Part shown: positions 1,707 to 27,039 of the stretch, piece by piece
How positions within the stretch are numbered: the stretch's first letter is position 1
Layout: each line of letters begins with the position of its first letter
Assembly (NCBI GenBank): GCA_902522465.1
Contig: CABYVV010000005.1
Span: 26,361 to 90,360 of the forward strand
Origin: an uncultured Alphaproteobacteria bacterium
GTDB taxonomy: Bacteria > Pseudomonadota > Alphaproteobacteria > Methylaequorales > Methylaequoraceae
Reading direction: 5' to 3'
DNA length: 64,000 nucleotides
Position numbers and translations under genes: made by a program
Notes under the pieces: generated by a model
Databases searched by the model: none
What the model was told of the DNA's origin: nothing
Seen by the model: only the letters and a program-made list of their open reading frames with translations

Positions 1707-1722
1707 TGGCAATATTTTTGCT
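1707..1722 (+). promoter_or_regulatory. Putative sigma-54 (-24/-12) promoter for the activator-fliE-fliF-fliG-fliH-fliI-fliJ operon.
   Basis: TGGCAA-N-TTTGC with GG(1708-09)-N10-GC(1720-21) spacing, 35 nt upstream of the start codon at 1756. It is preceded by two A13-A15 tracts. Confidence 0.5.
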
Positions 1723-1755
1723 TTCTAGGTTTTAGTAAAAAAAAAGGAATTAAAT

Positions 1756-2913
1756 ATGAAGGAAATATTTATAATTAAAGATTGCTTTGACTCTTATGAA
1801 GAGGTCCATAAGCATTTTTTAACAAAAGGTAATAATGTTAATGTATTAAGTTATGAAGAAGCAATCAATTTAAATTCTTCAAAATCAATAGTTGTAATTC
1901 ATCAAAAATTAGAAGAAAAAAAGGGTGGTAAATCAGAAATATTGAAATTTGCAAGGGATATTGGTTGTATTAAAATTATAACTATAAACTCTAACTATGA
2001 TAATGGATATTCAATTTGTAAAGAGATGGGTGGGGCATACATAAAGTTATCCTTCAAAAACATCGATGAAGTTATAAAAGAAATTATTTTCCAGATAATC
2101 TCAACTGAGAAATATAGTTTTTCAGATAAAAAAACAATCTGTCTTGTAAATATGGTTGAAAAGGTTGCAACAACTGACGTAACTGTTTTCATTCACGGAC
2201 CTACTGGAACCGGAAAAGAAGTAATTTCCAACCTTATACACAAGAAATCAGATAGGGCAGACAAACCATTTATTGCAATTAATTGTGCTGCTATCCCAGA
2301 AAATATGCTAGAAGCAATGTTATTTGGCCATGAAAAAGGGGCATTTACCGGTGCTTCCTCAGCAAATAAAGGGATTTTTAGAGCAGCTGATACAGGAACC
2401 CTATTATTGGATGAAATTTCTGAAATGCCATTGTCGCTTCAAGCTAAACTCCTAAGAGTCTTACAAGAAAAAAAGGTAACTCCTATTGGGGGTCAAAGAG
2501 ACATTGATGTAAATGTAAGGGTAATTGCAACTACAAATAGAGATATGTTGAATGAGGTAAAAGAGAAAAAGTTTCGAGAGGATTTATATTATAGATTAAA
2601 TGTTTTTCCAATTGAAACTCACAATTTATCTGAAAGACCAGATGATATTTTACCCATCAGCATTGCTTTACTGAATAGACATACTGAAGAAAGTTTTTTA
2701 CCTTATATAAGTGACGAGGCACAAAAAATTCTAAGAGAATACAGTTGGCCAGGAAACGTAAGAGAACTTGAAAATGTTCTACAAAGAGCAATAGTTCTAT
2801 GTGAAAACAATATAATAGATGAAAAAGACATAATGATTGATGTCTCAAAACAGAGTAATTTTTATAATAATATTCAAGAAAACTTATCAGAAAAAAAAGC
2901 AATACAAGCTTAA
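1756..2913 (+). CDS. Sigma-54-dependent activator. It has an N-terminal degenerate receiver-like (FleQ-type) domain plus the AAA+ domain, and appears to lack the C-terminal HTH.
   Basis: Walker A GPTGTGKE, GAFTGA (EKGAFTGA) and an ESFLPY...WPGNVRELEN region. The roughly 130 aa N-terminal domain has His rather than Asp at the expected phospho-acceptor position (VVIHQKL). The C-terminus ends soon after the AAA+ lid with no Fis-like helix-turn-helix. Confidence 0.8.
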   Translation: MKEIFIIKDCFDSYEEVHKHFLTKGNNVNVLSYEEAINLNSSKSIVVIHQKLEEKKGGKSEILKFARDIGCIKIITINSNYDNGYSICKEMGGAYIKLSFKNIDEVIKEIIFQIISTEKYSFSDKKTICLVNMVEKVATTDVTVFIHGPTGTGKEVISNLIHKKSDRADKPFIAINCAAIPENMLEAMLFGHEKGAFTGASSANKGIFRAADTGTLLLDEISEMPLSLQAKLLRVLQEKKVTPIGGQRDIDVNVRVIATTNRDMLNEVKEKKFREDLYYRLNVFPIETHNLSERPDDILPISIALLNRHTEESFLPYISDEAQKILREYSWPGNVRELENVLQRAIVLCENNIIDEKDIMIDVSKQSNFYNNIQENLSEKKAIQA

Positions 2914-2929
2914 AAATTTAGGAGAAAAA

Positions 2930-3268
2930 ATGAAACCAAGTCTTACAAATCTTAAACCAACAGTTACAATGCCCAGCAATCAAACTGAAATAAAAAATAT
3001 TCAAGAAGAGGTTGCTAACTTATCACCAAAAATAATTGAACCACAGGATGGAGGATTTTTGGAGAATATTAAATCAGCAATTCAAGAGGTTTCCGATACC
3101 CAAAAGCAAAGTGCCGAACTTACAAAAAACTTTGAACTCGGGCTAGAAAACGATTTAACCAAGGTTATGATCCAGCAACAATTGTCAAGTTTAGGGTTCC
3201 AGATGACTTTGAATGTAAGAAATAAAGTACTGAGTGCATATAAAGATATAATGAATATGCCTGTTTAA
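2930..3268 (+). CDS. fliE: Flagellar hook-basal body complex protein FliE.
   Basis: 112 aa. The C-terminus VMIQQQLSSLGFQMTLNVRNKVLSAYKDIMNMPV matches the FliE signature. The RBS GGAGAAAAAA lies immediately upstream. The ORF-track start at 2837 overlaps the upstream gene and was rejected. Confidence 0.8.
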   Translation: MKPSLTNLKPTVTMPSNQTEIKNIQEEVANLSPKIIEPQDGGFLENIKSAIQEVSDTQKQSAELTKNFELGLENDLTKVMIQQQLSSLGFQMTLNVRNKVLSAYKDIMNMPV

Positions 3269-3285
3269 ATTAAAAGGAAAAGATT

Positions 3286-5007
3286 ATGGCTGAAGACATA
3301 CAAACTGCTGAATTAGCAAAGACTCAAATAACCAATCAGGGAATTTTAGCAAATATTGGAAATTCACTTGAAAAAATAAAAAAATTCTCAAATGAACCCG
3401 CTGTTCAAAGATCAATTCCTGTTATGATTACCTTATTTGTAATATTCATAGGTTTAGTTTTTTTTATATCCTTTAGAGAACCATCAAGAACAACTCTATT
3501 TTCTGCACTACCAGAACACGAGAAATCAAGAGTCATGGACGTTTTAAGAGCTAATGGTATTGATGTATCAATCGATAGAACTACAGGTGAGATTTTAGTT
3601 CCATCTCCAGAATATTATGAAGCAAAAATGAAACTTGCAGCTGAAGGACTTCCAAGCTCTGTTCCTCAGGGATATGATGTTTTAGAGAAAATACCAATGG
3701 GAACTAGTAGATCAGTTGAATTTATGAAAATGAAACAAACGCAAGAAATCGAACTTGCGCGATCAATAAATGAAATAGCTAATATTGTTGGAGCTAGAGT
3801 GCATCTTGCAATTCCAGAAAAATCGGTTTTTGTAAGAGATTCTTCTCCACCAACTGCCTCGGTTTTTGTAAAATTAGCTGATGGAAGAGCCCTAGGCTTG
3901 GAACAGATTCGTTCAATAGTACATATTGTTTCTTCATCTATTCCAAACATGACATCAGATAACGTTACTGTGGTAGATCAATATGGTTCACTTCTATCTA
4001 AACCTGAAGATGATCCAAATCTTGCAATGACCGAAAAACAGTTGGCTCACAGAGTAAAAATAGAATCTATTTACAGGGAAAGAATTTTATCATTGGTTTC
4101 TCCTATCGTAGGAGCTGGAAATCTAACAGCTCAGGTTAATGTTGAAATGGACTTTACAAGTAATCAAACAACCGAAGAAATTTTTGATCCAGAAAGCATT
4201 TCAACTAGAAGTGAACAAAATAGTCAAGATGAGTCTACTGATAGACCAGCCAGAGGAGTTCCAGGTGCTGTAGCAAATCAAGCTCCACTTGCTGCGGATT
4301 TACAGGTGGCAGCCCCCGAAACTGGTGAGCCAGCGGAATTTAAACAAAGATCTTCTAGTAATGTGAAAAATTATGAAGTTAGTAAAAAACTTAGTACAAC
4401 AGTTGGACAGATTGGAAAAATTAAAAAAGTAAAAACAGCAGTTTTAGTCAAAAATAAAATCGTTGAAACTCCAGAAGGTACGATTTCGCAACCCATTAGT
4501 GACGAAGACAAAGAGAAAATTACCTCTTTAGTGAAAGAAGCAGTAGGTTTTAACGAAGATAGAGAAGATTCTATCGTAGTAACTAGTGGAGATTTTATTC
4601 AAGAAATGGATGTTATCTCAAAAAAATGGTATGAAGAATCTTGGTTTCAAAATATGATTGGACAACTATCAACTGTTCTTATTCTAGCAATTGTAACATT
4701 CGGAGCTTTAAAACCTCTGTTAAACAGAATTTTAGTACCATCAGCAGGAGTAGCAGGTGCGCCTGGTGGAGCTTCAGAAGCTGATCTAGAAGCTGAAGAA
4801 GCTGAAGATGAAGTCCAAGTTCAAGAAGGTGAATCTTTAGAAGATATTAAAGCTAAACTAAAACCAAAAAAATCAACAATCTCAGCAGATATGCTTGATA
4901 CAGCAAATACTTACGATGACAAGGTTGCTGTAATACGAATGATTGTTGGTGATGAAGCTGGAAAAGTTTCTAACGTATTCAGACAATTAATGAAAAAAGA
5001 TGTATAA
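3286..5007 (+). CDS. fliF: Flagellar MS-ring protein FliF.
   Basis: 573 aa. It has an N-terminal TM segment, a YscJ/FliF family core and a C-terminal TM segment, in the right position between fliE and fliG. Confidence 0.9.
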   Translation: MAEDIQTAELAKTQITNQGILANIGNSLEKIKKFSNEPAVQRSIPVMITLFVIFIGLVFFISFREPSRTTLFSALPEHEKSRVMDVLRANGIDVSIDRTTGEILVPSPEYYEAKMKLAAEGLPSSVPQGYDVLEKIPMGTSRSVEFMKMKQTQEIELARSINEIANIVGARVHLAIPEKSVFVRDSSPPTASVFVKLADGRALGLEQIRSIVHIVSSSIPNMTSDNVTVVDQYGSLLSKPEDDPNLAMTEKQLAHRVKIESIYRERILSLVSPIVGAGNLTAQVNVEMDFTSNQTTEEIFDPESISTRSEQNSQDESTDRPARGVPGAVANQAPLAADLQVAAPETGEPAEFKQRSSSNVKNYEVSKKLSTTVGQIGKIKKVKTAVLVKNKIVETPEGTISQPISDEDKEKITSLVKEAVGFNEDREDSIVVTSGDFIQEMDVISKKWYEESWFQNMIGQLSTVLILAIVTFGALKPLLNRILVPSAGVAGAPGGASEADLEAEEAEDEVQVQEGESLEDIKAKLKPKKSTISADMLDTANTYDDKVAVIRMIVGDEAGKVSNVFRQLMKKDV

Positions 5008-5030
5008 TAATCTTTATAAGGAGTATACAG

Positions 5031-6080
5031 ATGGCTGAAAAAGCTAAGGAAGAAAGTAAGGAAGAAGAAGAAAAGTCACAATACGAGCAGCTAACTAGCA
5101 CTCAAAAATGTGCAATTCTAATGATGTTACTGGGAGAAGAAGAAGCTTCAGAAATTCTTAAAAACCTTGGACCAAAAGAAGTTCAACAGTTGGGTAAAGA
5201 AATGTACAACGTTCAGGGTTTAGATCAAGATACAGTAAACCGGGTTCTTGATGAATTCCTAGCAATAATAAAAACGCAAACTGATCTAGGTATGGGGTCA
5301 ACTAATTATATAAGAAATGTAATGACAAAAGCACTTGGAGAAAATAAGGCACAATCAGTTTTAGGGAGAATAACTCCAACTGAAAGTGATAAGCCAATTG
5401 AAATTTTAGATTGGATGGACGCAAGATCTGTTGCAGAACTAATTTCTGATGAGCACCCGCAGATTATGGCGTTAATAATTTCATACCTTGAAGCTGGTGT
5501 TGCAGCCGACGTTCTTACTCTATTACCCGAGGAAACACAGTCAGACATAATACATAGAATTGCTACATTAGAAACGGTTCAACCCGATGCACTGGCAGAG
5601 TTAGAGAGAGTCATGCAACTAAAGTTCAAAACAAATACATCTTTACGCGCATCATCTGTAGGAGGTGTAAAGGATGCAGCATCTATAATGAACTTTACTA
5701 AACAAAATATGGAACAAAGAATCATGAAAACACTGGGTGAGAAAGATAGAAACCTAGCGAAAGAAATACAAGAAAGTATGTTTACATTTGACACACTGAT
5801 TTTAATGGACGATAGAAGTATGCAAACACTTTTAAGGAATGTTGATCAAGAAATTTTAATCATTGCTCTCAAAGGAACAGAAGACGAATTAAAAGATAAA
5901 ATTTTTTCTTGTATGTCACAAAGAGCCTCTGCAAATATAAGAGACGAGATGGAGGTGCTTGGACCATTAAGATTAACAGAGGTTCAGGAAGCCCAAAAAG
6001 CTATCATTAATGTAGCTAGAACAATGTCTGATGAAGGAACTATTGTTCTTGCTGGAAGAGGTGGAGATGACTTTGTATGA
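5031..6080 (+). CDS. fliG: Flagellar motor switch protein FliG.
   Basis: 349 aa. The FliG middle and C-terminal domains are present and the protein ends ...EGTIVLAGRGGDDFV. Gene order also supports the call. Confidence 0.9.
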   Translation: MAEKAKEESKEEEEKSQYEQLTSTQKCAILMMLLGEEEASEILKNLGPKEVQQLGKEMYNVQGLDQDTVNRVLDEFLAIIKTQTDLGMGSTNYIRNVMTKALGENKAQSVLGRITPTESDKPIEILDWMDARSVAELISDEHPQIMALIISYLEAGVAADVLTLLPEETQSDIIHRIATLETVQPDALAELERVMQLKFKTNTSLRASSVGGVKDAASIMNFTKQNMEQRIMKTLGEKDRNLAKEIQESMFTFDTLILMDDRSMQTLLRNVDQEILIIALKGTEDELKDKIFSCMSQRASANIRDEMEVLGPLRLTEVQEAQKAIINVARTMSDEGTIVLAGRGGDDFV

Positions 6081-6967
6081 TGCCATTAAAAGAAAATGAG
6101 GAATCTGCTAATAAAGTAGAAAAAGTTTCTGGAGCATTAAGCACAGAAGAAATAGTAAGTTTATTAAGCAAAAGTAATAAAGATTTTATAAAAGAATCTG
6201 AGATTTCGTCCACCATAACAAATCTATTTAAAAAGATTACTCCAAAAATCCTTGCAAAAAAAAAAGAGGATGATGACTTAAAAATTAAAAATGAAACGGA
6301 AAAACAAACCGAAGAACTTCTTGAAGAAGTAAAACCTCAGGATATTGAAAATGACGAAAAAAAAGATCCTGTATTAGAAAAGAAATATACAGAAGCTGAA
6401 GCACAAAAATTAGCTAATGAATATGCCAAACAATATTACAACAATGGATACAAACTAGGGGTTAAGAAAACCACAGAAGAATTACAGAAAGGCGATATGG
6501 CTCTAGCTGTTACATTCAAGAAAACTGCTGATAATATCTTTGCGGTTACACCAGATTTTTCAAAAAAATTAACTCTTTCAATTAATAAGCTTATTTTAAA
6601 AATAACTAATGAAGTTTTAGGTTATGAAATTGATAACAATAACCCAATTTTTCAAAATAAAATAAAAGAACTTGTTAATTCAATTGAAAAATCAGTTAAT
6701 GCTGTGGAGATTTATCTTAATGAGCAAGATTTAAAATCAATTAGTGATTATAACAAACAAAATAATATTTCTTTTTCTTATAAATTACTCCCTGATTCAA
6801 AACTTCAAAGAGGAGATTTAAGAGTTAAATCTGGATCAATTGAAGTTGGAGACATCGTATCCAATAAAATTAATTTTTCTGATTCAAATGACTTAAATTT
6901 GAATTTAAAGTTTGATTCTAATAATGATAAATTAAGTAATCAACCAAAACAAAAACCTAATACTTGA
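6077..6967 (+). CDS. fliH: Flagellar assembly protein FliH, the negative regulator of FliI.
   Basis: It sits between fliG and fliI with a 4 nt overlap to fliG. The protein is charged and coiled-coil rich with a FliH-like C-terminal domain. The call rests mostly on position. Confidence 0.6.
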   Translation: MMPLKENEESANKVEKVSGALSTEEIVSLLSKSNKDFIKESEISSTITNLFKKITPKILAKKKEDDDLKIKNETEKQTEELLEEVKPQDIENDEKKDPVLEKKYTEAEAQKLANEYAKQYYNNGYKLGVKKTTEELQKGDMALAVTFKKTADNIFAVTPDFSKKLTLSINKLILKITNEVLGYEIDNNNPIFQNKIKELVNSIEKSVNAVEIYLNEQDLKSISDYNKQNNISFSYKLLPDSKLQRGDLRVKSGSIEVGDIVSNKINFSDSNDLNLNLKFDSNNDKLSNQPKQKPNT

Positions 6968-6968
6968 T

Positions 6969-8288
6969 ATGATTCTTGCTGAGAACATATTAAGGAATGC
7001 TGAAAAGCATAGAATAAGTAGAAATAGAATCTACAAAAGTAAAACAACAAAATTTGATGGAAAAGTTGTTGAATGCGATTCTTTTCCCTCGCCTATCGGA
7101 ACAATTTGTCAAATTGAATGTGATGATAAAACTTATGTAACAGGAGAAATTATAGGATTCAAGGAAAATAAAAATATAATCGCAGTTCATGAAATGAATG
7201 CCAATATAATCTTAGGATCTACAATCAAAGTTTTAAACTCATCAAATGATATCGAAGTCGGTCCTCAAATTCTCGGAAGAGTGGTCGATGCGTTTGGAAA
7301 ACCAATTGATGGAGGTGACGACAATATTGGACTAAATGAACTTTGGCCAATAAATGGAAAAAATATAAATCCAATGAACAGAAAACCAATTAATGAAGTT
7401 TTAGACGTTGGTATTAGAGCTATAAACTCATTATTTACAGTTGGAAGAGGCCAAAGGTTAGGAATAATTGCAGGCTCAGGTGTAGGCAAGTCCATATTAT
7501 TGGGTATGATGACAAAATTCACCAATGCTGATGTAGTTGTTGTTGCGTTAATTGGAGAAAGAGGAAGAGAGCTAGGTAATTTTGTATCAGAAATTTTGAA
7601 TGATGAATCAAGAAAAAGGACTGTAACTGTAGCTGTTCCAGCTGATAAATCTCCTTTGTTAAGAATAAAAGGAGCAGAACGAGCAACATCTATTGCCGAA
7701 TATTTCAGATCAAAGGGTAAAAATGTTTTACTAATCATGGATTCCCTTACAAGAATTGCTCATGCGAAAAGAGAAGTTGGTTTAGCATTAGGAGAACAAC
7801 CAACATCAAAGGGCTATCCTCCTTCAGTAATTTCTATGATTCCAAGTCTGATTGAAAGAACAGGAACTGGTTCCAAAGATGAAGGAACAATCACAAGTTT
7901 TTACACAATTCTCGCAGACTCTGATGACACAAATGATCCTGTCGTCGATACAGCTCGAGCAATATTGGATGGCCATATTGTTCTTTCTAGAGAACTGGCA
8001 CAATTAGGAATTTTTCCTGCAATAGATTTAAATCAATCACTAAGTAGAGTAATGAATTCCATAGTTTCTGATGAACACCAGAATAAATCTGAAATTATAA
8101 AGAAATTTTATTCAATATATCAAGAAAATAAAGATCTTGTTCTGATGGGCGGATACAATCAAGGACAAAATGCTGATATAGACAGTGCCTTGATAAATTG
8201 GCCTAAAATTTGCGAGTTAATCAAACAAAATTATAAGGTAAAATCTGATTTTAATAGTAGCTACGAAAGTTTAAATAAAATAAATTAA
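6969..8288 (+). CDS. fliI: Flagellum-specific ATP synthase FliI.
   Basis: Walker A GSGVGKS, Walker B LLIMDSLTR, and F1/T3SS ATPase-family similarity throughout. Confidence 0.9.
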   Translation: MILAENILRNAEKHRISRNRIYKSKTTKFDGKVVECDSFPSPIGTICQIECDDKTYVTGEIIGFKENKNIIAVHEMNANIILGSTIKVLNSSNDIEVGPQILGRVVDAFGKPIDGGDDNIGLNELWPINGKNINPMNRKPINEVLDVGIRAINSLFTVGRGQRLGIIAGSGVGKSILLGMMTKFTNADVVVVALIGERGRELGNFVSEILNDESRKRTVTVAVPADKSPLLRIKGAERATSIAEYFRSKGKNVLLIMDSLTRIAHAKREVGLALGEQPTSKGYPPSVISMIPSLIERTGTGSKDEGTITSFYTILADSDDTNDPVVDTARAILDGHIVLSRELAQLGIFPAIDLNQSLSRVMNSIVSDEHQNKSEIIKKFYSIYQENKDLVLMGGYNQGQNADIDSALINWPKICELIKQNYKVKSDFNSSYESLNKIN

Positions 8289-8702
8289 ATGAAAAAAAAT
8301 AAATACGATACTTTCTTAATTCTTAAAAAGCTAAAAAAAAATAAATTACTTAATAATTTGAACACACTGAGTATTGAAAAAGATAAAATTAAATTAGTCA
8401 AAGAAACCTTGCATGAAATGATAGATGCTTCAAATATTGATAATTTTGAAGAAACCTTAGGTTCTACATTAAAAGTAAGAGCTAATTTTAGGCAAAATTT
8501 AATGAACAAACTTGAAATTTCATCTAATAGGCAAAATCATTTGCAGAATGAGATCAACAACAATCTCTCTGCCATTGGAAAGATTGAAAAACAAAAAGAG
8601 AAAATTCTAGAAAAAAAAAAAATAGAAGAAGAAAAAAAGCAAAATCTCATCGAATTAAAAAAAGATAATTATTTTAAACCTAAAAATTTCATTCCTTTTT
8701 AG
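8289..8702 (+). CDS. fliJ: Flagellar export chaperone FliJ.
   Basis: A 137 aa coiled-coil protein immediately after fliI. The call rests on position and size. Confidence 0.6.
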   Translation: MKKNKYDTFLILKKLKKNKLLNNLNTLSIEKDKIKLVKETLHEMIDASNIDNFEETLGSTLKVRANFRQNLMNKLEISSNRQNHLQNEINNNLSAIGKIEKQKEKILEKKKIEEEKKQNLIELKKDNYFKPKNFIPF

Positions 8703-8744: not shown

Positions 8745-10025
8745 ATGGTTGCAATAAATAATAATTTAAACGAAAAATTCAAAATTCTTACTTCAAAAAA
8801 CGCATTTGATCAAAATGATCAATTATTTGCGGAATTATTTGCATTGATGAATTCAAATGTTGTCAGCAGTAAAGAAAAAGAAGTTCTTCAGAATATCATC
8901 ACTGAATCAAATGAAAACTCGTCGGCAAAAAAACTTTTAGATTCAAGTCAAATCAATTCCATCAATAATACTTCAAAGACTTCTGTCAATGAAAATGAGT
9001 TAGCATTAGCCAAATCACTTGCGGAAATTTTTTATAAAGAACTTGGAATCGATGAAAATTCTCAATTGCCTGATAAGATTAAAGAGTTGTCGAATAAGGA
9101 AAATTTTAATATTAGACCAGATTTAAGTAAAAATGATGTTAAAGACCTACATAAATCATTAGATCTGTTTGAAGAAAAAGAGATTGAAGATAGATCACCA
9201 AGAAATTTAACAATCAAAATAGAAAAAAAAGTTTTTGACAATAGTAAAAAACAACATCATCAAATACAAATTGGTTCAAGTCTAGATGTAAAATTTAATA
9301 AAACTATTAATAAAGAACCAAAATTAAATATTTCGAAAAATGAAAAAATTTTAAATATTAGTCAAAATTCTGCTCAAGTAGAGAAAAAAATAAAAAAGAA
9401 AAATAAACAACTTGGTCAAAGTTCAAAAAGTGTATTCGAGGATATTAAAACACAAATAAATGAGGCCAAAGGAGATATAAAAACAGCACGAGTTAATAAT
9501 ATAAAAACACAAACTCCAAGAGATAATAAAATCTCAATTAAAAAGGAATCCTTTGAAAAAAATGACACTAAGACATTGGATAACAAACAAACTTTCGCAA
9601 ACCTTAACAATAAAGAATTTTTAAATTTGCTAGAAAGTAGTTGGGGAGAGAAGTTTTCTAAAATAATCAAGAATTCAGTAAACAATGGTAATAATAAAGT
9701 AGAAATAGAACTCAAACCCCACAATTTAGGAAAACTTAATTTAGAAGTTTCACTAAAAAACAATAAAACTTTCATTAACATCAGCTCGGAAAATCAAGAA
9801 GTTGTAAATATACTGAATGAAAACCTTCCTCGCTTTACTGAAATAATTGACAAAGAAAATAAATCATTTTCAAGTTTTGTTAATACTAATAATCAAAATG
9901 GTAACTTCGGTGAAAACAAAGAAAAGAAAACTGTAATTTCACAGGACAACTTAATAAAAAAGAAAAAGAATATTGAATCAAAGATTAATAAAATTAGTAA
10001 TCATAATATTGATGTGAATGCTTAA
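8745..10025 (+). CDS. fliK: Flagellar hook-length control protein FliK.
   Basis: A low-complexity N/K/S-rich N-terminal region and a C-terminal Flg_hook-like domain (VEIELKPHNLGKLNLEVSLKNNKTFINISSENQEV..NENLPRFTEII). It sits after fliJ. Confidence 0.65.
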   Translation: MVAINNNLNEKFKILTSKNAFDQNDQLFAELFALMNSNVVSSKEKEVLQNIITESNENSSAKKLLDSSQINSINNTSKTSVNENELALAKSLAEIFYKELGIDENSQLPDKIKELSNKENFNIRPDLSKNDVKDLHKSLDLFEEKEIEDRSPRNLTIKIEKKVFDNSKKQHHQIQIGSSLDVKFNKTINKEPKLNISKNEKILNISQNSAQVEKKIKKKNKQLGQSSKSVFEDIKTQINEAKGDIKTARVNNIKTQTPRDNKISIKKESFEKNDTKTLDNKQTFANLNNKEFLNLLESSWGEKFSKIIKNSVNNGNNKVEIELKPHNLGKLNLEVSLKNNKTFINISSENQEVVNILNENLPRFTEIIDKENKSFSSFVNTNNQNGNFGENKEKKTVISQDNLIKKKKNIESKINKISNHNIDVNA

Positions 10026-10052
10026 TTGATTTAAAGTATTAAGGAGAAAAAA

Positions 10053-10682
10053 ATGGCTGAAGAAAACAATCAAGAAAATGAAAAAAAATCCCCATTAAAA
10101 TTAATTTTAATGATAGTTGGAGGAGTTGTTCTTCTAGGATTGGGAATAGGCGTTGGTATATTCATGGGTGGAGGAGATGGTACCGATCCTTCGGCAGAAA
10201 TATCTAAAATTATTGAAAAAAAAGAAAATCCTGACGAAAAAGAAAGTAAAGAAGAAAATGAGGAAGAATTAGCAGAAGAGTGTGCTGAGGAAGAAAAAGA
10301 TGAAGAAGGGAATTGTCCAACTGGGCCAAAAAAAATTCCTAAAATCACACCTGAAGAAGAAATCTTTACAACAACGTATTACGAATTTCCAGGAAACTTT
10401 ACTGCGAATTTGAAAGGATCAAAGAAGTTTCTTCAATTATCAGTTGGAGTTTCAACTCAATATGATGAGCAAGTTATGGTGAATGTAGAAAGTCATCAAT
10501 TAGCCTTAAGGTCAGAAATTCTTACCATAATGTCAGAATTTTCATCTGAAGACATAGCCGGAAAAGATGGTAAATATAGGTTAGCAGAATCTTTAAGAGA
10601 TGGGATTAATGAAGTTTTAGTAAAAGTAGAGGGGTTTGGTGGAATTGAAAATGTACATTTCACATCCTTTGTTGTACAATAG
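10053..10682 (+). CDS. fliL: Flagellar basal-body-associated protein FliL.
   Basis: A single N-terminal TM segment (LILMIVGGVVLLGLGIGVGIFM) followed by a FliL-type periplasmic domain. It is positioned before fliM. Confidence 0.75.
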   Translation: MAEENNQENEKKSPLKLILMIVGGVVLLGLGIGVGIFMGGGDGTDPSAEISKIIEKKENPDEKESKEENEEELAEECAEEEKDEEGNCPTGPKKIPKITPEEEIFTTTYYEFPGNFTANLKGSKKFLQLSVGVSTQYDEQVMVNVESHQLALRSEILTIMSEFSSEDIAGKDGKYRLAESLRDGINEVLVKVEGFGGIENVHFTSFVVQ

Positions 10683-10696
10683 CAATTAATATAATT

Positions 10697-11677
10697 ATGA
10701 GTGAACCGTCAAGAAAATTATCAAGTGAAGAAGTAAATGCTTTAATGGATGGTTTGAAGTCTGGTGATCTCAGTGCATCTACTTCAGTCAGAGATGGCGA
10801 TGACATCGAATACAAAAAGTTCAATTTTGGATCGGATGACTTATCGCTATTGGGCGACTACTATGCTCTTCGACTAATAAATGAGAGGTTTGCAAGAACT
10901 GTTAGAGGGGTTTTTTTACCTTTACTTAGAGTTCAACCTAGAATAAGTTCTTTTCCACCTGAGGTAAAATCTTTTGAAGAATATAGTTCCGGTCTAGATG
11001 CATTTATGAGTTTGACAAACAGTAGAATAGACGAATTAAGAGGATCTATGTTAACAGTTCTTCCACCTTCTTTTGTGAGTTTGTGTACAAGTAGTAGATA
11101 TGGTGGAAAACTTGAAGTTAATGAGACAGCAAGAACAGAATTCACAGCAACAGAAGAAAAAATAATTGAGGTAATAAACAATGGTATTTCAGATGTTCTA
11201 GAGCAATGTTGGAAAGATCTAACTCCAATTTCGATAAAATTTCAGAGTAGAGAACAAAATCCCCAGTTTGCTGCTTTTGTTGAATCAACAGATCTAGTAA
11301 TAGTTTGTTCTTTCGTCATGCAGTTACCAAATATTGATTCAATGTCTTTCGATGTAGTTTACCCACTTCAAACATTAAAACCAGTTTCTTCCTTACTGAG
11401 ATCCAGAGTGCAATCTGATGTAGTAGAATCTAATATGACATGGAGAGATAAATTAGAAAAAGCAGTTTTAGAAGTTCCATTGATGGTTAAAAGTAATTTG
11501 TCAGAACCAATAGTTTCAATGTCAAAATTACTTAGGATGAAATCTGGTGATACCCTCGCTGTCAACCTTGAGGATACTGTAGATTTTTATGTAGAAAATC
11601 AGAAATACTTTAAAGCAGAAATGGGAGAACTAAATGGTAATGCCTCAGTTAAACTTTCAAATAGAATAAACAATTAA
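10697..11677 (+). CDS. fliM: Flagellar motor switch protein FliM.
   Basis: An N-terminal CheY-P binding motif (LSSEEVNALMDGL), a CheC-like middle domain and a C-terminal SpoA-like region. Confidence 0.85.
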   Translation: MSEPSRKLSSEEVNALMDGLKSGDLSASTSVRDGDDIEYKKFNFGSDDLSLLGDYYALRLINERFARTVRGVFLPLLRVQPRISSFPPEVKSFEEYSSGLDAFMSLTNSRIDELRGSMLTVLPPSFVSLCTSSRYGGKLEVNETARTEFTATEEKIIEVINNGISDVLEQCWKDLTPISIKFQSREQNPQFAAFVESTDLVIVCSFVMQLPNIDSMSFDVVYPLQTLKPVSSLLRSRVQSDVVESNMTWRDKLEKAVLEVPLMVKSNLSEPIVSMSKLLRMKSGDTLAVNLEDTVDFYVENQKYFKAEMGELNGNASVKLSNRINN

Positions 11678-11688
11678 GGAGAAAAATT

Positions 11689-12090
11689 ATGAATGCAGAA
11701 ACAGTAGAAAAAGAACAAAACCCAACTGCAGAGGCGAAAGAAAACGCAGCAGAAAAGGAAGCTTCAACTAATGAAAATCCTGTTGACAACAAAGAAGAAT
11801 CAAATAAAAAAGTAGAAACAAACTCTGCCGCTGTAAGTAATCTTCGACTCCTAGAAAATATCGAAGTTAGACTTACTGTTGAAGTTGGAAATACAGAAAT
11901 AAAAATAAAAGATCTTCTAAGATTAAATGAAGGATCAGTTATTGAACTTGATCGTTTAGCTGGCGACGCACTAGATATACTAGCTAATGGAACTAAAATT
12001 GCCAAAGGCGAAGTTGTAATGGTAGGAGAAAAATTCGGTATAAGATTCACAGAAGTTGCAACTCCTGAAGAACTTATGCAGAACTTGTAG
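11689..12090 (+). CDS. fliN: Flagellar motor switch protein FliN.
   Basis: A C-terminal SpoA/FliN domain (VRLTVEVGNTEIKIKDLLRLNEGSVIELDRLAGDALDILANGTKIAKGEVV). Confidence 0.85.
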   Translation: MNAETVEKEQNPTAEAKENAAEKEASTNENPVDNKEESNKKVETNSAAVSNLRLLENIEVRLTVEVGNTEIKIKDLLRLNEGSVIELDRLAGDALDILANGTKIAKGEVVMVGEKFGIRFTEVATPEELMQNL

Positions 12091-12168
12091 CGTCATCTAT
12101 TTGACGTCAATATTTTAAGTTTTTTTTTTTTCAATAAAATCAATTGTTTAGATAACTTTATTTATAAA

Positions 12169-12217: not shown

Positions 12218-12541
12218 ATGCCAGAATATACAGGTCCAAGTTTATCAAACTATTTATTAGTCTTAGGTTTCCTAGCATTGTTATTTATAGGATTCTATTA
12301 CATCAAGAAAAACAGACACATAATTTCTAAAACAATCAATTCCAAAAGAAGAATGAAAGTATCTGAGGTAACTGTGTTAGGTCAGGGAGACAGAGCCTTA
12401 ATCTTAAACTTAGATGATAAAGATTACTTATTCATTTCCGGTAAGAACTCAGGTGCTTTATTAACAGAGATTAAGCATAAAAGTATTAAAACAAATAACC
12501 TTGAAAAGGTGTTTGAAAAAAGGCTAATGAATGAAAAATAG
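12218..12541 (+). CDS. fliO: Flagellar biosynthesis protein FliO.
   Basis: 107 aa with a single TM helix (YLLVLGFLALLFIGFYYI), located immediately before fliP and overlapping it slightly. Confidence 0.55.
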   Translation: MPEYTGPSLSNYLLVLGFLALLFIGFYYIKKNRHIISKTINSKRRMKVSEVTVLGQGDRALILNLDDKDYLFISGKNSGALLTEIKHKSIKTNNLEKVFEKRLMNEK

Positions 12542-13274
12542 TTTAATTATTTTCTTTCTGGTATTTTTACCTACCTTAGCTTTCTCACAGGTTGCTCCTC
12601 AAGGACTTGAGGCTTTAACTATTACAGAATCTGCAAATGGAACAAAAACCTATTCTGTGTCTTTAAAAATTCTTGCCTTGATGACTGCTCTAACAATTCT
12701 TCCATCATTAGTACTTGGCATGACTGCATTTACTAGGATTATAATTGTAATGTCAATTTTAAGACAAGCACTTGGCACTCAACAAACACCCCCCAATCAA
12801 ATATTAGTAGCGATTTCATTATTTTTGACATTTTTTATAATGGCTCCAACTTTCAATAAAATTTATTCGGATGTTTCAGGACCTTACAATAAAGGTGAAA
12901 TGAACCTTACTGAGGCAGTGGAGAGTGGTGGAGGTGAATTAAAAAAATTTATGATTAAAAATACAAGAAAAAATGATTTACTAATGTTTTCACAGATGGC
13001 TAATGAAGGTGATTTTGAAGATAGCACTCAAGTTCCATTTTACATAGTTCTTCCGGCTTATATAACAAGTGAATTGAAAACCGCCTTTCAGATTGGGTTC
13101 TTACTTTTTTTACCTTTTCTTGTAATTGATATGGTGGTTGCATCAGTCCTAATGTCGCTTGGAATGATGATGTTATCACCAATGTTGATTGCACTACCAT
13201 TTAAATTACTTTTATTTGTGTTAGTAGATGGTTGGTCAATGACCGTTGGATCTCTTGTAGGAACTTTTTCATAG
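12531..13274 (+). CDS. fliP: Flagellar export apparatus protein FliP.
   Basis: A signal peptide plus the conserved FliP core (LTALTILPSLVLGMTAFTRIIIVMSILRQALGTQQTPPNQIL). Confidence 0.9.
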   Translation: MKNSLIIFFLVFLPTLAFSQVAPQGLEALTITESANGTKTYSVSLKILALMTALTILPSLVLGMTAFTRIIIVMSILRQALGTQQTPPNQILVAISLFLTFFIMAPTFNKIYSDVSGPYNKGEMNLTEAVESGGGELKKFMIKNTRKNDLLMFSQMANEGDFEDSTQVPFYIVLPAYITSELKTAFQIGFLLFLPFLVIDMVVASVLMSLGMMMLSPMLIALPFKLLLFVLVDGWSMTVGSLVGTFS

Positions 13275-13292
13275 TTTACTGAGGAGAATAAA

Positions 13293-13559
13293 ATGGGATT
13301 TGATGAAAACGTTGAAATGATAAGATTAGCTTTCTACCAGGTGCTAATATCAAGTGGTCCATTTTTAGGAGCAGCATTAGCAATTGGATTAATAATAGGA
13401 ATTGTTCAAGCAGCCACCTCTATTCAGGAAATGACCTTAAGCTTTGTACCAAAAATTGTAATTGTAATTTTCGCAATTGGTTTTCTTGCAAATTTTCTTT
13501 TAGTGAGTTTAACAGACTATTTTAATTTTATATTTGATACGATATCAGGTATCAATTAA
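13293..13559 (+). CDS. fliQ: Flagellar export apparatus protein FliQ.
   Basis: An 88 aa protein with two TM segments, of the FliQ family. Confidence 0.85.
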   Translation: MGFDENVEMIRLAFYQVLISSGPFLGAALAIGLIIGIVQAATSIQEMTLSFVPKIVIVIFAIGFLANFLLVSLTDYFNFIFDTISGIN

Positions 13560-14374
13560 TGTTTATTCCCCTACCCTTTTATAATCCAATGGATGCTCTA
13601 CCTGGTCTTGAGCTTAATTCAGTTTTAGAATATTTATTTAAATTTTTTTTATGTTCAGTTAGGCTCTCAGCATTTTTTATTTCAAGTCCTTTTTTTGGAT
13701 CAAGAGTAATTCCACTCAATATTAAAATTTTATTCTCTTTAGTAATATCTTTTTTTTATTTTGGATATCTATCTGATATTGAAATTTCAAAACAAGTTTT
13801 AGATCATCTATTTATAATTGTAATTGTTGAAGCACTTATTGGGCTAGCACTTGGCTTAACTCTAACGATTTGGTTTGCTGCTGCCAGTTTAGCTGGTGAA
13901 AAAATTGCATCTACAACTGGTCTGGGTTTTTCTCAAATGGTTGATCCTGATACTGGAGGACAGACACCGGTAATAAGTTTAATAATGGATTTGTTTCTTG
14001 TGACTATTTTTCTTTCACTTAACGGGCACCTTATAGCAATTGAATTTTTATTTAAAAGTTTTGAAATTTTTAACATCAACAGTGGACTTCCTCCCATTGG
14101 ATTGGTTGGTTTAGGAATAGAAGCTGCTGGAGCAATGTTCTATACCGGTGGGCTAATTATGCTACCAGTTGTTGGAGCACTTTTAATGACTAATATTGCT
14201 GTAGGAATAATAACAAGAGCTGCTCCCCAATTGAATATGTTTTCTTTTGCTTTTCCAGTAACTATGATTTTAGCTTTCTTCATAATGTATATTTCCTCCC
14301 AATCAATTGGTAATGCTTTTGCTGAATTAACAAAAAGCTCACTTGAATCAATAGAAAACATTCTATCTAACTAA
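13559..14374 (+). CDS. fliR: Flagellar export apparatus protein FliR.
   Basis: A 271 aa polytopic membrane protein, start-overlapped with fliQ, of the FliR family. Confidence 0.85.
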   Translation: MFIPLPFYNPMDALPGLELNSVLEYLFKFFLCSVRLSAFFISSPFFGSRVIPLNIKILFSLVISFFYFGYLSDIEISKQVLDHLFIIVIVEALIGLALGLTLTIWFAAASLAGEKIASTTGLGFSQMVDPDTGGQTPVISLIMDLFLVTIFLSLNGHLIAIEFLFKSFEIFNINSGLPPIGLVGLGIEAAGAMFYTGGLIMLPVVGALLMTNIAVGIITRAAPQLNMFSFAFPVTMILAFFIMYISSQSIGNAFAELTKSSLESIENILSN

Positions 14375-14385
14375 AAGGTTTCACT

Positions 14386-15537
14386 ATGGCAGAAGATAGA
14401 GACGAAAGTCAGGAAAAAACACAAGAACCCACACCCAGACGATTGGAAAAAGCCAAGGAGGATGGGAAAGTCTTATCTTCTAAGGAAGCATTTGTGTTTA
14501 CTTCAATGTTTGTTGGGGTATTACTATTTTATTTATCACCAATGTTATTGGATGATTTTCTAAAGATATGTAAATCTTTTTTTTCATTTGGACCTGAAGT
14601 AGCAAATGGAAAATCTCCTTTAGAATCTATGGCTACGGTTATTAGGTTTTTATTACAAGTTTTTTTGATTTTCTCAATACCACTCCTTATTGTAAGCATC
14701 ATTACACAATTTGTTGTGGGTGGTATAAATTTTTCAATAAAGTCTATTTATTGGAAATTTGAAAAATTGAATCCAATAAAAGGATTAAAAAGAATTTTTT
14801 CGATAAAAGGTTTGGTTGAATTAATAAAAGCAATTCTAAAAGTTACATTGCTTGGCGCTGTATCTTTTTTTGTAATCAACAAATATTTACCAGACATTAC
14901 AAATTTAACGAGCGCCAATATTTTTTCTGCAGTTAATAGAATGACTTCTTTTTTTCCTGAGTTAGCTCTTGCTCTTATGTTAGTTCTGGCATTTCTTGCA
15001 ATTATAGACGTGATTTATCAAAAATATGATTATATCAAACAATTAAGAATGTCCCATCAAGATCTTAAAGACGAATACAAGGAAACAGATGGACAACCAG
15101 AAGTAAAACAAAAAATTAGAAAATTACAAGCTCAAGCTGCAATGAAAGGAAGAAAGGAAGCTTCATCAGTTGATGATTTAAAAGAAGCAACAGCAATAAT
15201 AACAAACCCAACCCATTTTGCCGTAGCATTAAAATACGAGGTAGGTGAATCAACAGCTCCAATAATAATTTCTAAAGGAAGAGGTAAAAATGCCGAATCA
15301 ATTATTAAAAAAGGAAAAGAACTTGAAATAGGAACAATGCAAAGTCCAAAATTAGCAAGGGCTCTTTATTACACATGCGAAATTGGAGATGAAATAATTA
15401 GTAAACTTTACAATGCAGTTGCTATTGCATTAGCTTATATTTATAAAGTAAATAACGGAGAAGAAATCGAGAAACCAGAAATTGAGTTGCCAGAAGATAT
15501 GATTTATGACGAATTTGGAAGAAAAAATGATAAATAG
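14386..15537 (+). CDS. flhB: Flagellar export switch protein FlhB.
   Basis: An N-terminus MAEDRDESQEKTQEPTPRRLEKAKEDG, four TM segments and the NPTH autocleavage motif (ITNPTHFAVALKY). Confidence 0.9.
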   Translation: MAEDRDESQEKTQEPTPRRLEKAKEDGKVLSSKEAFVFTSMFVGVLLFYLSPMLLDDFLKICKSFFSFGPEVANGKSPLESMATVIRFLLQVFLIFSIPLLIVSIITQFVVGGINFSIKSIYWKFEKLNPIKGLKRIFSIKGLVELIKAILKVTLLGAVSFFVINKYLPDITNLTSANIFSAVNRMTSFFPELALALMLVLAFLAIIDVIYQKYDYIKQLRMSHQDLKDEYKETDGQPEVKQKIRKLQAQAAMKGRKEASSVDDLKEATAIITNPTHFAVALKYEVGESTAPIIISKGRGKNAESIIKKGKELEIGTMQSPKLARALYYTCEIGDEIISKLYNAVAIALAYIYKVNNGEEIEKPEIELPEDMIYDEFGRKNDK

Positions 15538-20194: not shown

Positions 20195-20204
20195 GATTTA
20201 AACT

Positions 20205-21029: not shown

Positions 21030-21047
21030 TGCAACTTTAATACCAAA
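21030..21047 (-). promoter_or_regulatory. Putative sigma-54 promoter for motA-motB and the 317 aa unknown gene.
   Basis: On the minus strand, TTGGTA-ttaaag-TTGCA, with GG (revcomp of CC at 21043-44)-N10-GC(21031-32) spacing, about 55 nt upstream of the motA start. Confidence 0.45.
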
Positions 21048-22373: not shown

Positions 22374-22559
22374 AATTAAAATAATAAGATAAATTCAAAA
22401 ATTTACTAGGAATATAAGCATTTCAAAAGTTTTTTTATATTTATTTTTTAAAAAATACATTAAAATTCAAGTCAAAATTCTGACTTCCCAAACATGTCAA
22501 ATTAAAGTTTTGCATTTTTTTTAAAAAAATTGTGAAATAATCATGAAAGGATAAAAATT

Positions 22560-24926: not shown

Positions 24927-24958
24927 ACAAAAGTATGAGCAAATTAAATGCCAAATAT

Positions 24959-26419
24959 TTATTTTTTTATTATAGAACTACTTAAAAGATCTCTACCAAC
25001 AGATATAAAGTTATAAGGATTGACAGATTTTCCATTTACTTTTACTTCATAATGCAAGTGAGCGCCAACTGCTCTTCCTGTGGATCCCATTCTTCCAATG
25101 ACCTGACCTTCAGTTACATTTGCTCCTTTTTTTACACTAAGCCTATGCAAGTGACCATAAAGAGTTGTAACTCCATGTTTATGTACGATTTTGATAGTTT
25201 TTCCGAAAGATCCATTTCTTCCTGAAAACGAAACATATCCATCTGCAGGCGCTCTCACTTCCTCTTGCCATGTTCCAGCCATATCAATACCGTGATGCAT
25301 TTGTTTTCTTTTTGATTTTGGATGAATTCTATAACCGTATGGACTTGACACGTAATAATACTGCATTGGAGGTTTCAAAGGAACATATATTATAGCATCT
25401 TTCAAATCCTGAAGAATCTGGAATCTTAAAGAGGTGTAATCCAGTAACTCCTCATTATCTCTATAGTTGATATTTTCTGTTAGTAAATTATTTATTTTAT
25501 GTATATCTAACTTTTCTGGTTTTAATTTTAATTCTACGAATACATTCATCAACTGAATAATTTCTGAATCTATTTTTTTGGTGAAGTTAATAATTTTTAG
25601 TTTTTTTGTTCTGGGAGCAACAAATGGAATCACTGGTAATTTGTTGTAAGCAAATTTATTATTATTTATTTTTGAAATTTTGGTAGAACCTACTTTACTC
25701 TCGATTGCGTGTTCCATAGCAATCATTTCTGGACTCGCAATTTTTGAGAATTGTTCGAATTTTACTTCATCTGAATGATTTACATCATCTGGAAAACTTA
25801 TTGAAATATTCCCCATTAAATTTTTAAGATTATCTATTTTTTCTTTTATTTGAATTTTGACATTATTAGATTTTTCTTTGTTTGTTGTTAATTCGTCTTC
25901 TTTATTTATGACAATTTGAATTTTTTCTGAGTTTAGTACTTGATCATTAATGGTTTTTTCTTTGGCAAGATCTTTTAGGGTTTGAATTTCTGTTTTTGTA
26001 AAACTTTGACTTGTTATTTCAGTATTTTTGTAAGTTAAATACGCGAAGAATGATGAAAAACCTAAAAATACTAATTGTAACATTTTAAAGGTGAAGACTA
26101 AAACCAAAATGAAAGCCGAAATATAGTGCTTGATATTAAATACCACCTCAATTGGTCCTCTTTTCGTGAAATATAAAAATCTCCTCTCTTTTAATAAATG
26201 TTTTAAATTTTTGGAAAACACACTTAAGTTTTTAGAAAAAACACTTGTTTCACCGAACCTTTGACTAGACTTTAGGTTTCTTAACAAACTAGATTTAATG
26301 TTATCATACGTAGATCTTTTGAAGAGATTTTCCATATTGATTATTTTAGATATAATACAATTACTAACATCATATTTGTTAGAAGTTGCATAAGCATAAT
26401 CAATAGCATTAGTTTCCAT
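24959..26419 (-). CDS. M23 family (LytM-type) peptidoglycan endopeptidase with an internal TM segment.
   Basis: A C-terminal M23 domain with HHGIDMAG...GRMGSTGRAVGAHLHYEV (HxxxD and HxH zinc ligands). The TM helix is near residue 100-130. Confidence 0.85.
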   Translation of the reverse strand: METNAIDYAYATSNKYDVSNCIISKIINMENLFKRSTYDNIKSSLLRNLKSSQRFGETSVFSKNLSVFSKNLKHLLKERRFLYFTKRGPIEVVFNIKHYISAFILVLVFTFKMLQLVFLGFSSFFAYLTYKNTEITSQSFTKTEIQTLKDLAKEKTINDQVLNSEKIQIVINKEDELTTNKEKSNNVKIQIKEKIDNLKNLMGNISISFPDDVNHSDEVKFEQFSKIASPEMIAMEHAIESKVGSTKISKINNNKFAYNKLPVIPFVAPRTKKLKIINFTKKIDSEIIQLMNVFVELKLKPEKLDIHKINNLLTENINYRDNEELLDYTSLRFQILQDLKDAIIYVPLKPPMQYYYVSSPYGYRIHPKSKRKQMHHGIDMAGTWQEEVRAPADGYVSFSGRNGSFGKTIKIVHKHGVTTLYGHLHRLSVKKGANVTEGQVIGRMGSTGRAVGAHLHYEVKVNGKSVNPYNFISVGRDLLSSSIIKK

Positions 26420-26895
26420 GAAATAGGATTACTAACATTTAAACTAAACTGAGGGAAAGGTTGCTTTTCATCAATTTTTACTGATTGTTTGTTCTCATCT
26501 ACCACTCTTTCATTCTGATAGTCATCATATTTTTTGAAACTTTCTTTGGATTCTTGTTTATTTCTTTTAAAATAGTTGGATTCATTGAGGTTTTCATTTT
26601 TTTGTTTATTATCTTTATCAATTTTAGCAGTTGTAATATAAACTTTATCTTCAATTGATTTTGATTTATTTTCTTCGGTTTTTGAAACATTTAATTTAGC
26701 TGAAATTTTAGCTTCGATGTTTTCTGTTTTAAAAACTTCATTATCAGTCTTAGTTTTTTGGTTAGGAACTCGATTATCGTTGATATCGTTAGCAGGTTTT
26801 TTTCTATCTTCCACACCTCCTTTTTGTCCTGGAACTGTAATCTGATTTCTCATCTTTTCTATTCTATCTCTTATATCAATAACTTGTTCTGTCAT
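26341..26895 (-). CDS. Hypothetical charged, low-complexity protein with a C-terminal hydrophobic anchor.
   Basis: 184 aa. It overlaps the M23 gene start by 79 nt in another frame. It may be a separate tail-anchored protein or part of a mis-framed N-terminus. Confidence 0.3.
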   Translation of the reverse strand: MTEQVIDIRDRIEKMRNQITVPGQKGGVEDRKKPANDINDNRVPNQKTKTDNEVFKTENIEAKISAKLNVSKTEENKSKSIEDKVYITTAKIDKDNKQKNENLNESNYFKRNKQESKESFKKYDDYQNERVVDENKQSVKIDEKQPFPQFSLNVSNPISWKLMLLIMLMQLLTNMMLVIVLYLK

Positions 26896-27023
26896 AATAA
26901 TATCAAACTACTATATTTTATTAAAAAAGTAAATTTATGCATTTAGTAAGCCAAAATTAATAATAAAAACTTTTTTTTTAAATTTTTTTATGATAATCAT
27001 AAACTTTTACAAAGGTTTAAAGT

Positions 27024-27039
27024 TGGCAAAATAATTGCA
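27024..27039 (+). promoter_or_regulatory. Sigma-54 promoter for the three-bactofilin operon.
   Basis: TGGCAA-aataa-TTGCA with perfect spacing. T-rich tracts lie upstream. Confidence 0.6.

Follow-up and report, generated by a model that had tools for sequence, protein, structure and literature searches.

Flagellar gene cascades driven by sigma-54 (RpoN) are textbook knowledge in Pseudomonas, Vibrio, Campylobacter, Caulobacter, and Rhodobacter sphaeroides. In the Fla1 system of Rhodobacter (Cereibacter) sphaeroides, the activator FleQ acts with RpoN2, encoded inside the flagellar cluster, to activate the fleT-fliEFGHIJ operon; FleT has no DNA-binding domain, and its hetero-oligomers with FleQ activate class III promoters, including those of motAB and fliA. 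The same bacterium has SltF, a Sec-exported SLT enzyme that opens the cell wall for the rod. In Pseudomonas putida, most structural operons belong to a single tier under FleQ and sigma-54, and the last tier is under FliA. Helicobacter pylori FlgR and Chlamydia CtcC are sigma-54 activators that lack a DNA-binding domain and act without enhancers; both are phosphorylated receivers of a cognate kinase. Here, we analyze a 64,000-nucleotide stretch of DNA from an uncultured alphaproteobacterium (contig CABYVV010000005.1, positions 26,361 to 90,360, forward strand; hereafter, the window), of which the first 30 kb are a flagellar core cluster with rpoN and two genes for sigma-54 activators. Very probably the cluster carries at least eight sigma-54 promoters, possibly nine. 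They fall into two architectures, and we lean toward reading the locus as a tiered sigma-54 cascade like that of FleQ and FleT in R. sphaeroides, run by two activators in a flagellar cluster of gammaproteobacterial type. The initial annotation of this DNA had described the whole motility region as organized by sigma-54; the organization stands, for the part of the regulon that lies inside the window.

Sigma-54 promoter elements

The window (approximately 30% G+C, approximately 5% noncoding) was scanned for TGGCAC-N5-TTGCW, with GG and GC required and mismatches counted at the other seven positions, and the chance level was taken from 300 dinucleotide-preserving shuffles of the window. Sites with at most one mismatch numbered 6, against a mean of 0.46 in the shuffles (maximum, 3), a thirteen-fold excess; sites with at most two mismatches numbered 17 (3.5 in shuffles), and those with at most three numbered 134 (94 expected). 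The six best sites all lie within the first 27 kb, on the sense strand, 12 to 54 nucleotides (nt) 5' of a start codon. Outside the flagellar region, motifs of this kind are not frequent in the AT-rich window, the 37 kb of nonflagellar sequence holding 0 sites with at most one mismatch; the initial annotation had itself proposed a check of this kind.

Eight elements, P1 to P8, each have 0 to 2 mismatches to the consensus. On the plus strand, P1 (1707-1722, TGGCAATATTTTTGCT) precedes an operon of an activator gene and fliEFGHIJ, P2 (8706-8721, TGGCACTATAATTGCA, a perfect consensus) precedes fliK-fliL-fliM-fliN, P3 (12169-12184, CGGCAAAGTTCTTGCA) precedes fliOPQR-flhB, P4 (15863-15878, TGGCACAAATTGTGCA) is embedded in coding sequence ahead of three unannotated genes, and P8 (27024-27039, TGGCAAAATAATTGCA) precedes three bactofilin genes. 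On the minus strand lie P5 (21030-21045, TGGTATTAAAGTTGCA), which faces the motor operon (pomA/motA, motB, and one further gene), P6 (24293-24308, TGGCAAGATTTTTGCA), which faces a 56-amino-acid (aa) open reading frame (ORF), and P7 (24938-24953, TGGCATTTAATTTGCT), which faces an SLT-domain gene. The initial annotation had listed six GG-N10-GC elements, and all six are real, correctly oriented, and facing the operons it named, whose gene identities are confirmed (activator-fliEFGHIJ, fliK-N, fliOPQR-flhB, pomA/motA-motB, and the bactofilins), as is the perfect consensus at 8706; that they cover structural, motor, and noncanonical genes alike is borne out by the gene content. It had missed two equally good sites (P6 and P7, both among the six with at most one mismatch), a possible divergent site at 21018-21033 (plus strand), and a second activator gene at 509-1570 (minus strand), and its site at 15863, although present before three genes, is not intergenic but lies within a 66-aa ORF (15735-15935).

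Conservation was followed in relatives that are likewise uncultured marine Alphaproteobacteria (single-cell genomes and metagenome-assembled genomes; FliM 78-96% identical; synteny kept). The comparison set comprised the surroundings of FliM in 23 genomic loci and of the M23 peptidase in 80 metagenomic loci, and for each promoter the region 5' of the orthologous start codon was extracted. A GG-N10-GC element with at most two mismatches stood at the orthologous place in every relative for P1 (17 relatives), P2 (8), P3 (22), P4 (21), P5 (17), P6 (25), and P7 (35), and the P5 element was invariant in 17/17. Across 161 nonredundant orthologous sites, GG, GC, and their spacing were 100% kept; the eleven specified motif positions were 95-100% conserved, versus 53-79% for the flanks outside P4 (the flanks of P4, which are coding, reached up to 90%). 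The downstream proteins in the footprinted relatives are 35-98% identical, with FliK going down to 35% and the 56-aa ORF to 40%. In 791 kb of sequence from relatives, 172 of the 193 sites with at most one mismatch fell at orthologous P1-P8 positions, and several of the remaining 21 are evidently orthologues missed by gene mapping. As a negative control, two-mismatch look-alikes within fliF, fliN, fliR, and motA were followed in the same way; they keep GG and GC through their codons, drift at the first T and at the C of TGGC, and were rejected as promoters because they behave as coding sequence.

That AT-rich DNA has produced these elements by chance is hardly credible, and so is a role as sites for another factor (operators, hairpins) rather than promoters. 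Weak matches are indeed plentiful in such DNA, as the count at three mismatches shows, and P4 is a small palindrome inside an ORF. Against this, the excess at one mismatch is thirteen-fold, every site faces a gene from promoter distance, diverged relatives keep the elements nearly unchanged while the flanks drift, the background in the 791 kb is almost nil, the motifs are not symmetric, and they co-occur with rpoN and two activators carrying the GAFTGA motif. Judged from sequence and its conservation, P1, P2, P3, P5, P6, P7, and P8 are very likely sigma-54 promoters. A distant relative with 63% G+C and a FliM 43% identical (locus L023) has sigma-54 elements with at most one mismatch at 1207, 8026, and 11318, before its equivalents of the activator, fliK, and fliO/P genes; the promoter layout therefore predates the AT-rich lineage.

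P4 is weighed on its own. The 66-aa ORF that contains it (plus strand) is conserved, has four cysteines in the pattern CxxC ... GC ... C, matches no family, and ends in a TGA that overlaps the ATG of the next gene (ATGA; translational coupling). The motif reads Ser-Gly-Thr-Asn-Cys-Ala and is kept as protein (SGT(N/D)CA). Several points speak against a promoter here: the -12 element is GTGCA instead of TTGCA, the site contains the palindrome GCACA-AAT-TGTGC, and, because it lies within a conserved ORF and is itself a small palindrome, its conservation is confounded. The site might instead be kept for the 66-aa protein sequence or for a small hairpin, with the downstream genes read from P3 in a long operon running from fliO through flhB to 18053, and the clearly conserved ORF, its stop codon overlapping the next start codon, and the GTGCA and palindrome fit that account. 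Codon usage argues against it: the glycine codon in P4 is GGC in 18/18 clean alignments (GGC makes up 8.4% of glycine codons), whereas the other three glycine codons of the ORF vary freely; the serine codon TCT, which supplies the first T, is fixed; and the look-alikes in other genes drift at the same positions. We take P4 to be a probable embedded sigma-54 promoter and consider the coding or hairpin account doubtful.

The possible ninth promoter (21018-21033, plus strand, TGGTATAGATTCTGCA) overlaps P5 by 4 nt and would be a divergent sigma-54 promoter for an Lcl_C-domain gene (21089-21568, plus strand). The element is kept in 25/30 relatives. It is the weaker of the two, and together with P5 it forms an inverted repeat (TTTTGGTAT-N14-ATACCAAAA, 21018-21045), whose plus-strand half is lost in some relatives (L011, L018, L019, and L021) that retain the Lcl_C gene.

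With a start approximately 12 nt past the GC, transcription is predicted to begin near 1733, 8732, 12195, 15889, 21019 (minus strand), 24282 (minus strand), 24926 (minus strand), and 27050 for P1 to P8. The start codon at P7, and in the close clade also at P8, follows the C of the -12 element by 12-13 nt (13 nt at P7), and no Shine-Dalgarno sequence is present; the predicted transcription start therefore falls on the start codon, and both transcripts are predicted to be leaderless. The leaders at P1, P2, P3, P4, and P6 measure 24-55 nt, nearly all with a Shine-Dalgarno sequence (17/18, 7/9, 23/23, 22/22, and 22/24), and the motA leader at P5 has one in 2/18 only. A start codon fixed at the expected sigma-54 start is indirect support for the predicted start sites. 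A literature search on leaderless sigma-54 flagellar transcripts found nothing relevant.

Two activators and two promoter architectures

The first activator, here termed enhancer-binding protein 1 (EBP1; 509..1570, minus strand), is FleQ-like: 353 aa with no N-terminal regulatory domain, an AAA+ domain with GAFTGA at residue 79, and a C-terminal Fis-type helix-turn-helix (HTH; HTH_8 at residues 305-345). An exact-sequence look-up found EBP1 not on record. The second, EBP2 (1756..2913, plus strand), is 385 aa long and has an N-terminal alpha/beta domain of approximately 125 aa and an AAA+ domain with an intact Walker A and GAFTGA at residue 195; it ends 17 residues past the AAA+ lid, with no HTH match and no DNA-binding domain found. 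With no DNA-binding HTH and a place as first gene of the fliE-J operon under P1, EBP2 is likened to FleT of R. sphaeroides. Both proteins have the same lengths in relatives, and the place of EBP2 within the P1 operon is conserved in all of them. The rpoN gene was correctly placed within the motility region by the initial annotation (22560-24026, plus strand, between the motor operon and the SLT/bactofilin genes); its product has all three Pfam sigma-54 domains (activator interacting, core binding, and DNA binding) and the RpoN box ARRTVAKYR.

When the N-terminal domain of EBP2 was used as a homology query, the hits were limited to 18 close relatives, most of them fragmentary, and by this measure the domain is lineage-specific. 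It alternates strands and helices like a receiver; at the phospho-acceptor position the window has His, and some relatives have Asp. A structure model of the domain (predicted local distance difference test score, 77) gave no PDB match at an E value of ≤0.001.

Alignment of the whole fleQ-EBP2 intergenic region revealed an invariant FleQ-box-like palindrome (GTCA-N6-TGAC; 1596..1611, TGTCAGAAAAATGACA) upstream of P1. It lies 26 nt from the start codon of fleQ (EBP1), which suggests autoregulation, and it is a candidate enhancer and autoregulatory site. P3 has a second such palindrome (12091..12106, CGTCATCTATTTGACG) directly after the fliN stop codon, and a third exact GTCA-N6-TGAC box lies 75 nt 5' of rpoN (22470..22485), followed by an invariant block, TGTCAAATTAAAGTTTTGCAT. 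Three exact boxes in the window compare with approximately 0.5 expected (an estimate from base composition); all three are intergenic, lie in the flagellar region, and are conserved in every relative, and they occur only at P1, P3, and rpoN. The three sequences (GTCAGAAAAATGAC, GTCATCTATTTGAC, and GTCAAAATTCTGAC) match the published Pseudomonas FleQ consensus (GTCaNTAAAtTGAC in P. aeruginosa, GTCAaAAAAtTGAC in P. putida; PMC6120874) in geometry (a 14-bp palindrome), half-sites, and A/T-rich spacer. The palindromes were also considered as terminators and rejected, two of the three lying between divergent genes and the stems being 4-5 bp. Scans for sigma-70 and terminator consensus sequences gave counts not above shuffles and were uninformative in 30% G+C DNA; of the "terminators" that were flagged, the one at 12090 is the FleQ-like box and the one at 15865 is P4.

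P1 and P3 share a conserved block, ATCAAT-N3-ATCAATNACTTA, placed between the box and the -24 element; it contains a match to the integration host factor (IHF) consensus, WATCAANNNNTTR. The IHF-like elements lie at 1653..1665 for P1 (minus strand, WATCAANNNNTTR, between box and promoter) and at 12138..12150 for P3 (plus strand, AATCAATTGTTTA), and their position is fixed in 14/18 relatives for P1 and 16/23 for P3, versus 0-1 relatives at the other six promoters. As a window-wide signal the IHF consensus is not enriched (19 versus 16); weight attaches only to the matches at P1 and P3, whose position is fixed and conserved. Relative to the predicted transcription starts, the boxes lie at approximately -129 (P1) and -97 (P3) and the IHF-like sites at approximately -74 and -51. 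This layout would be the classical one of enhancer, bend, and -24/-12 element, in which an activator site lies approximately 80-150 nt upstream of the start, often with IHF bound between the two.

At P2 and P4 through P8, no conserved box was found within -350 to +200, no IHF-like element was conserved within 110 nt, and no upstream motif was shared beyond coding conservation. There are thus two promoter classes, P1 and P3 with a box and an IHF-like element and the other six with a bare -24/-12 element. The bare promoters are packed behind the preceding gene: P2 starts 4 nt after the fliJ stop codon, P7 5 nt after the M23 stop codon, and P6 12 nt after the SLT stop codon.

The region upstream of rpoN (22470-22541) is near-invariant across relatives whose proteins are 40-80% identical; it comprises the box, TGTCAAATTAAAGTTTTGCAT, an A-run, and TTGTGAAATAAT. 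It contains no GG-N10-GC element, and its sequence, with a sigma-70-like -10 region, is more like that of a regulated sigma-70-type promoter than that of a sigma-54 promoter. Another strongly conserved intergenic block (26930-27005, TATGCATTTAGTAAGCCAAAATTAATAATAAAAACTTTTTTTTT...) lies between a divergent 184-aa gene and the bactofilins; the palindrome ATGATAATCAT within it (26990-27000) resembles a Fur box, and the block is kept even in relatives without P8.

The initial annotation had proposed a flat hierarchy under RpoN and one enhancer-binding protein. Two activators with complementary domains and two promoter architectures do not support it, and we favor, with some reserve, the tiered FleQ/FleT-type cascade. 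In its first step, EBP1 would bind the palindromes and, with IHF-assisted looping, open P1 and P3, thereby supplying EBP2 together with the MS ring, FliG of the rotor, and the ATPase complex and gate of the export apparatus. Acting from solution by itself or within a mixed oligomer with EBP1, EBP2 would then open the enhancer-less promoters. P2 would provide hook-length control and the remainder of the switch, P5 the stator, P7 the SltF-like enzyme, P8 the bactofilins, and P4 and P6 the products of their genes. The box before rpoN, beside the sigma-70-like promoter, would let EBP1 tune the supply of sigma-54, and the box at 1596 would let EBP1 regulate its own gene. The motifs with their excess over chance and their conservation, the gene content, the domain architectures, and the two kinds of promoter are direct observations, and from them we infer the binder of the palindromes, the order of activation, and the leaderless starts at P7 and P8; by analogy with R. 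sphaeroides, the two architectures are compatible with hetero-oligomers of both activators switching the promoter class.

Two other arrangements of the same parts were considered. In a single flat sigma-54 tier, one activator species (EBP1, or a constitutive EBP1/EBP2 complex) would fire all eight promoters, for which the one-tier scheme of P. putida, where FleQ does so for most class II flagellar promoters, is a documented precedent. All eight promoters share one core motif, and FleQ targets in Pseudomonas are often without a recognizable box (PMC6120874). We consider this arrangement unlikely, however, as the box and IHF-like element are kept at P1 and P3 only and a second, HTH-less activator in the P1 operon, present in all relatives, typifies the tiered system of R. 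sphaeroides. Alternatively, EBP2 may be a brake that forms mixed, less active rings with EBP1 and so exerts negative feedback on P1 and P3, with cryptic EBP1 sites, or an activator whose gene lies elsewhere, serving the bare promoters. A brake would suit the missing DNA-binding domain of EBP2, its lineage-specific N-terminal domain without an assigned function, and the inactivity of R. sphaeroides FleT by itself; but the Walker A and GAFTGA loop of EBP2 are intact, which a pure inhibitor would not need, and the known FleQ/FleT complex is an activator. We therefore regard a brake as quite improbable.

Some observations weigh against the tiered cascade itself. The inactivity of FleT by itself tells against EBP2 acting alone, and the frequency of box-less FleQ targets means that a missing box at six promoters does not prove independence of EBP1. 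The likeness to R. sphaeroides is one of domain architecture and gene order; the modeled N-terminal domain of EBP2 appears weakly similar to both receiver and flavodoxin-like folds; and P8 is kept in approximately 21/36 relatives and missing in approximately 14/36, a subset of the more distant ones.

No sigma-28 class is evident in the window, as the initial annotation had said, which is true but uninformative, since flagellin, hook, rod, flgM, and fliA genes are not located there. The window and the examined flanks of relatives yielded no fliA, flgM, or flagellin gene, and walking left of fleQ in relatives met housekeeping genes only, with no further flagellar genes and no fliA. A sigma-28 consensus scan of the window showed no excess. 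Its best match (28404-28430, minus strand, TAAA-N15-GCCGTTAA, 1 mismatch) lies 8 nt 5' of a 90-aa ORF (28124-28396, minus strand), and this single match is within chance expectation.

Genes of the cluster and its surroundings

Behind EBP2, the P1 operon continues on the plus strand with fliE, fliF, fliG, fliH, fliI, and a fliJ-sized ORF without a family match (2930..8702). The genes fliK, fliL, fliM, and fliN (8745..12090) and fliO, fliP, fliQ, fliR, and flhB (12218..15537) follow on the same strand. Two small ORFs lie between flhB and the three unannotated genes 3' of P4 (15932..18053, plus strand), which are conserved; two of the three have no family match. The last gene of the three (17454-18053, plus strand) encodes a divergent protein resembling ribosome recycling factor (RRF; Pfam RRF, 42.8 bits), with a full-length alignment to PDB 1ge9 (E = 9e-6) and 30 bits against the frr equivalog, below the cut-off of 149. 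An RRF paralogue within a flagellar cluster is unexpected.

The motor operon on the minus strand comprises pomA/motA (20205-20978), motB (19010-20194), and a 317-aa gene without identity (18055-19008). After rpoN, the minus-strand order is the conserved 56-aa ORF (24098-24268, driven by P6), the SLT-domain gene (24321-24926, driven by P7), which encodes an SltF-like lytic transglycosylase with a signal peptide, the M23 peptidase gene, and a gene without identity. The three tandem bactofilins driven by P8 occupy 27051-28153 (plus strand). The M23 peptidase matches cell-shape peptidases of Helicobacter and Campylobacter (Pgp/Csd-like), and it and the three bactofilins (24959-28153) adjoin the flagellar genes; these are hints of a curved or helical cell with its shape genes partly under sigma-54.

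From 30 to 64 kb, the window holds housekeeping genes and a glycosyltransferase island of 25% G+C. The block at 41000-64000 (24-26% G+C, all on the minus strand) carries glycosyltransferases, aminotransferases, asparagine synthase, and genes without identity, is without sigma-54 motifs, and probably represents a variable island for surface polysaccharide. Scanning the window for Rfam families and tRNAs gave no hits. In one long-read relative (L104, contig mantis_2__contig_17002_pilon), many flagellar genes are fragmented, including both EBP2 halves, fliI, and fliG; the fragmentation probably reflects frameshift errors at homopolymers of this AT-rich DNA, not pseudogenes. In one relative, the contig that carries the EBP1 homologue is 1.5 Mb long, a hint of a small genome (streamlined marine lineage).

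Meaning and comparison with known systems

That flagellar genes are under sigma-54 adds a lineage, not a principle. The locus provides a parts list in cis and trans for an uncultured, abundant marine group, with promoters, a candidate activator box, and two architecture classes. By sharing promoters of one kind, the bactofilins, the SltF-like enzyme, the RRF-like protein, and several ORFs without identity can be assigned to the flagellar regulon. The locus is also a natural case of enhancer-less, very compact sigma-54 promoters, some predicted leaderless, paired with an activator without a DNA-binding domain. More tentatively, sigma-54 could here be essentially dedicated to motility and shape and work with a FleQ split in two, the one part (AAA+, HTH) binding enhancers and the other (alpha/beta domain, AAA+, no HTH) serving enhancer-less promoters in gaps of 4 to 12 nt between genes or inside coding sequence. 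If so, flagellar assembly would be coupled through this regulon to a bactofilin cytoskeleton, a dedicated lytic transglycosylase, and an RRF-like paralogue, and its proteins without identity would be candidate new components of the flagellum or of cell shape.

Compared with H. pylori FlgR and Chlamydia CtcC, EBP2 is alike in having an AAA+ domain with GAFTGA, no HTH, and promoters without a detectable upstream activator site; it differs in an N-terminal domain that is without a conserved phospho-acceptor Asp and matches receivers weakly.

The FleQ (FlrA) cascades of Pseudomonas and Vibrio share with this locus the gene order fliEFGHIJ / fliK-L-M-N / fliOPQR-flhB, sigma-54 promoters before these operons, a PomA-like stator, the GTCA-N6-TGAC box geometry, and IHF sites at FleQ targets (PMC6120874). 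They differ in that EBP1 is without the FleQ-type N-terminal domain, the second activator is HTH-less here and not a response regulator with an HTH (FleR or FlrC), and no FleN/FlhF or FliA genes are in view.

The Fla1 system of R. sphaeroides is alike in its master sigma-54 activator with a DNA-binding domain, an HTH-less second activator that comes first in a sigma-54-dependent fliEFGHIJ operon (a synteny kept in the relatives here), rpoN in the flagellar cluster, motAB under sigma-54 and not sigma-28, and a Sec-exported SLT-type muramidase (SltF) replacing the FlgJ muramidase domain. All architectural features of Fla1 that were compared recur in the window. Unlike Fla1, however, this cluster is split and has no flg, flhA, fliC, fliA, or che genes in its neighborhood; its boxes resemble the Pseudomonas FleQ site, two of its transcripts are predicted to be leaderless, and its sigma-54 regulon appears to reach bactofilins and genes without identity.

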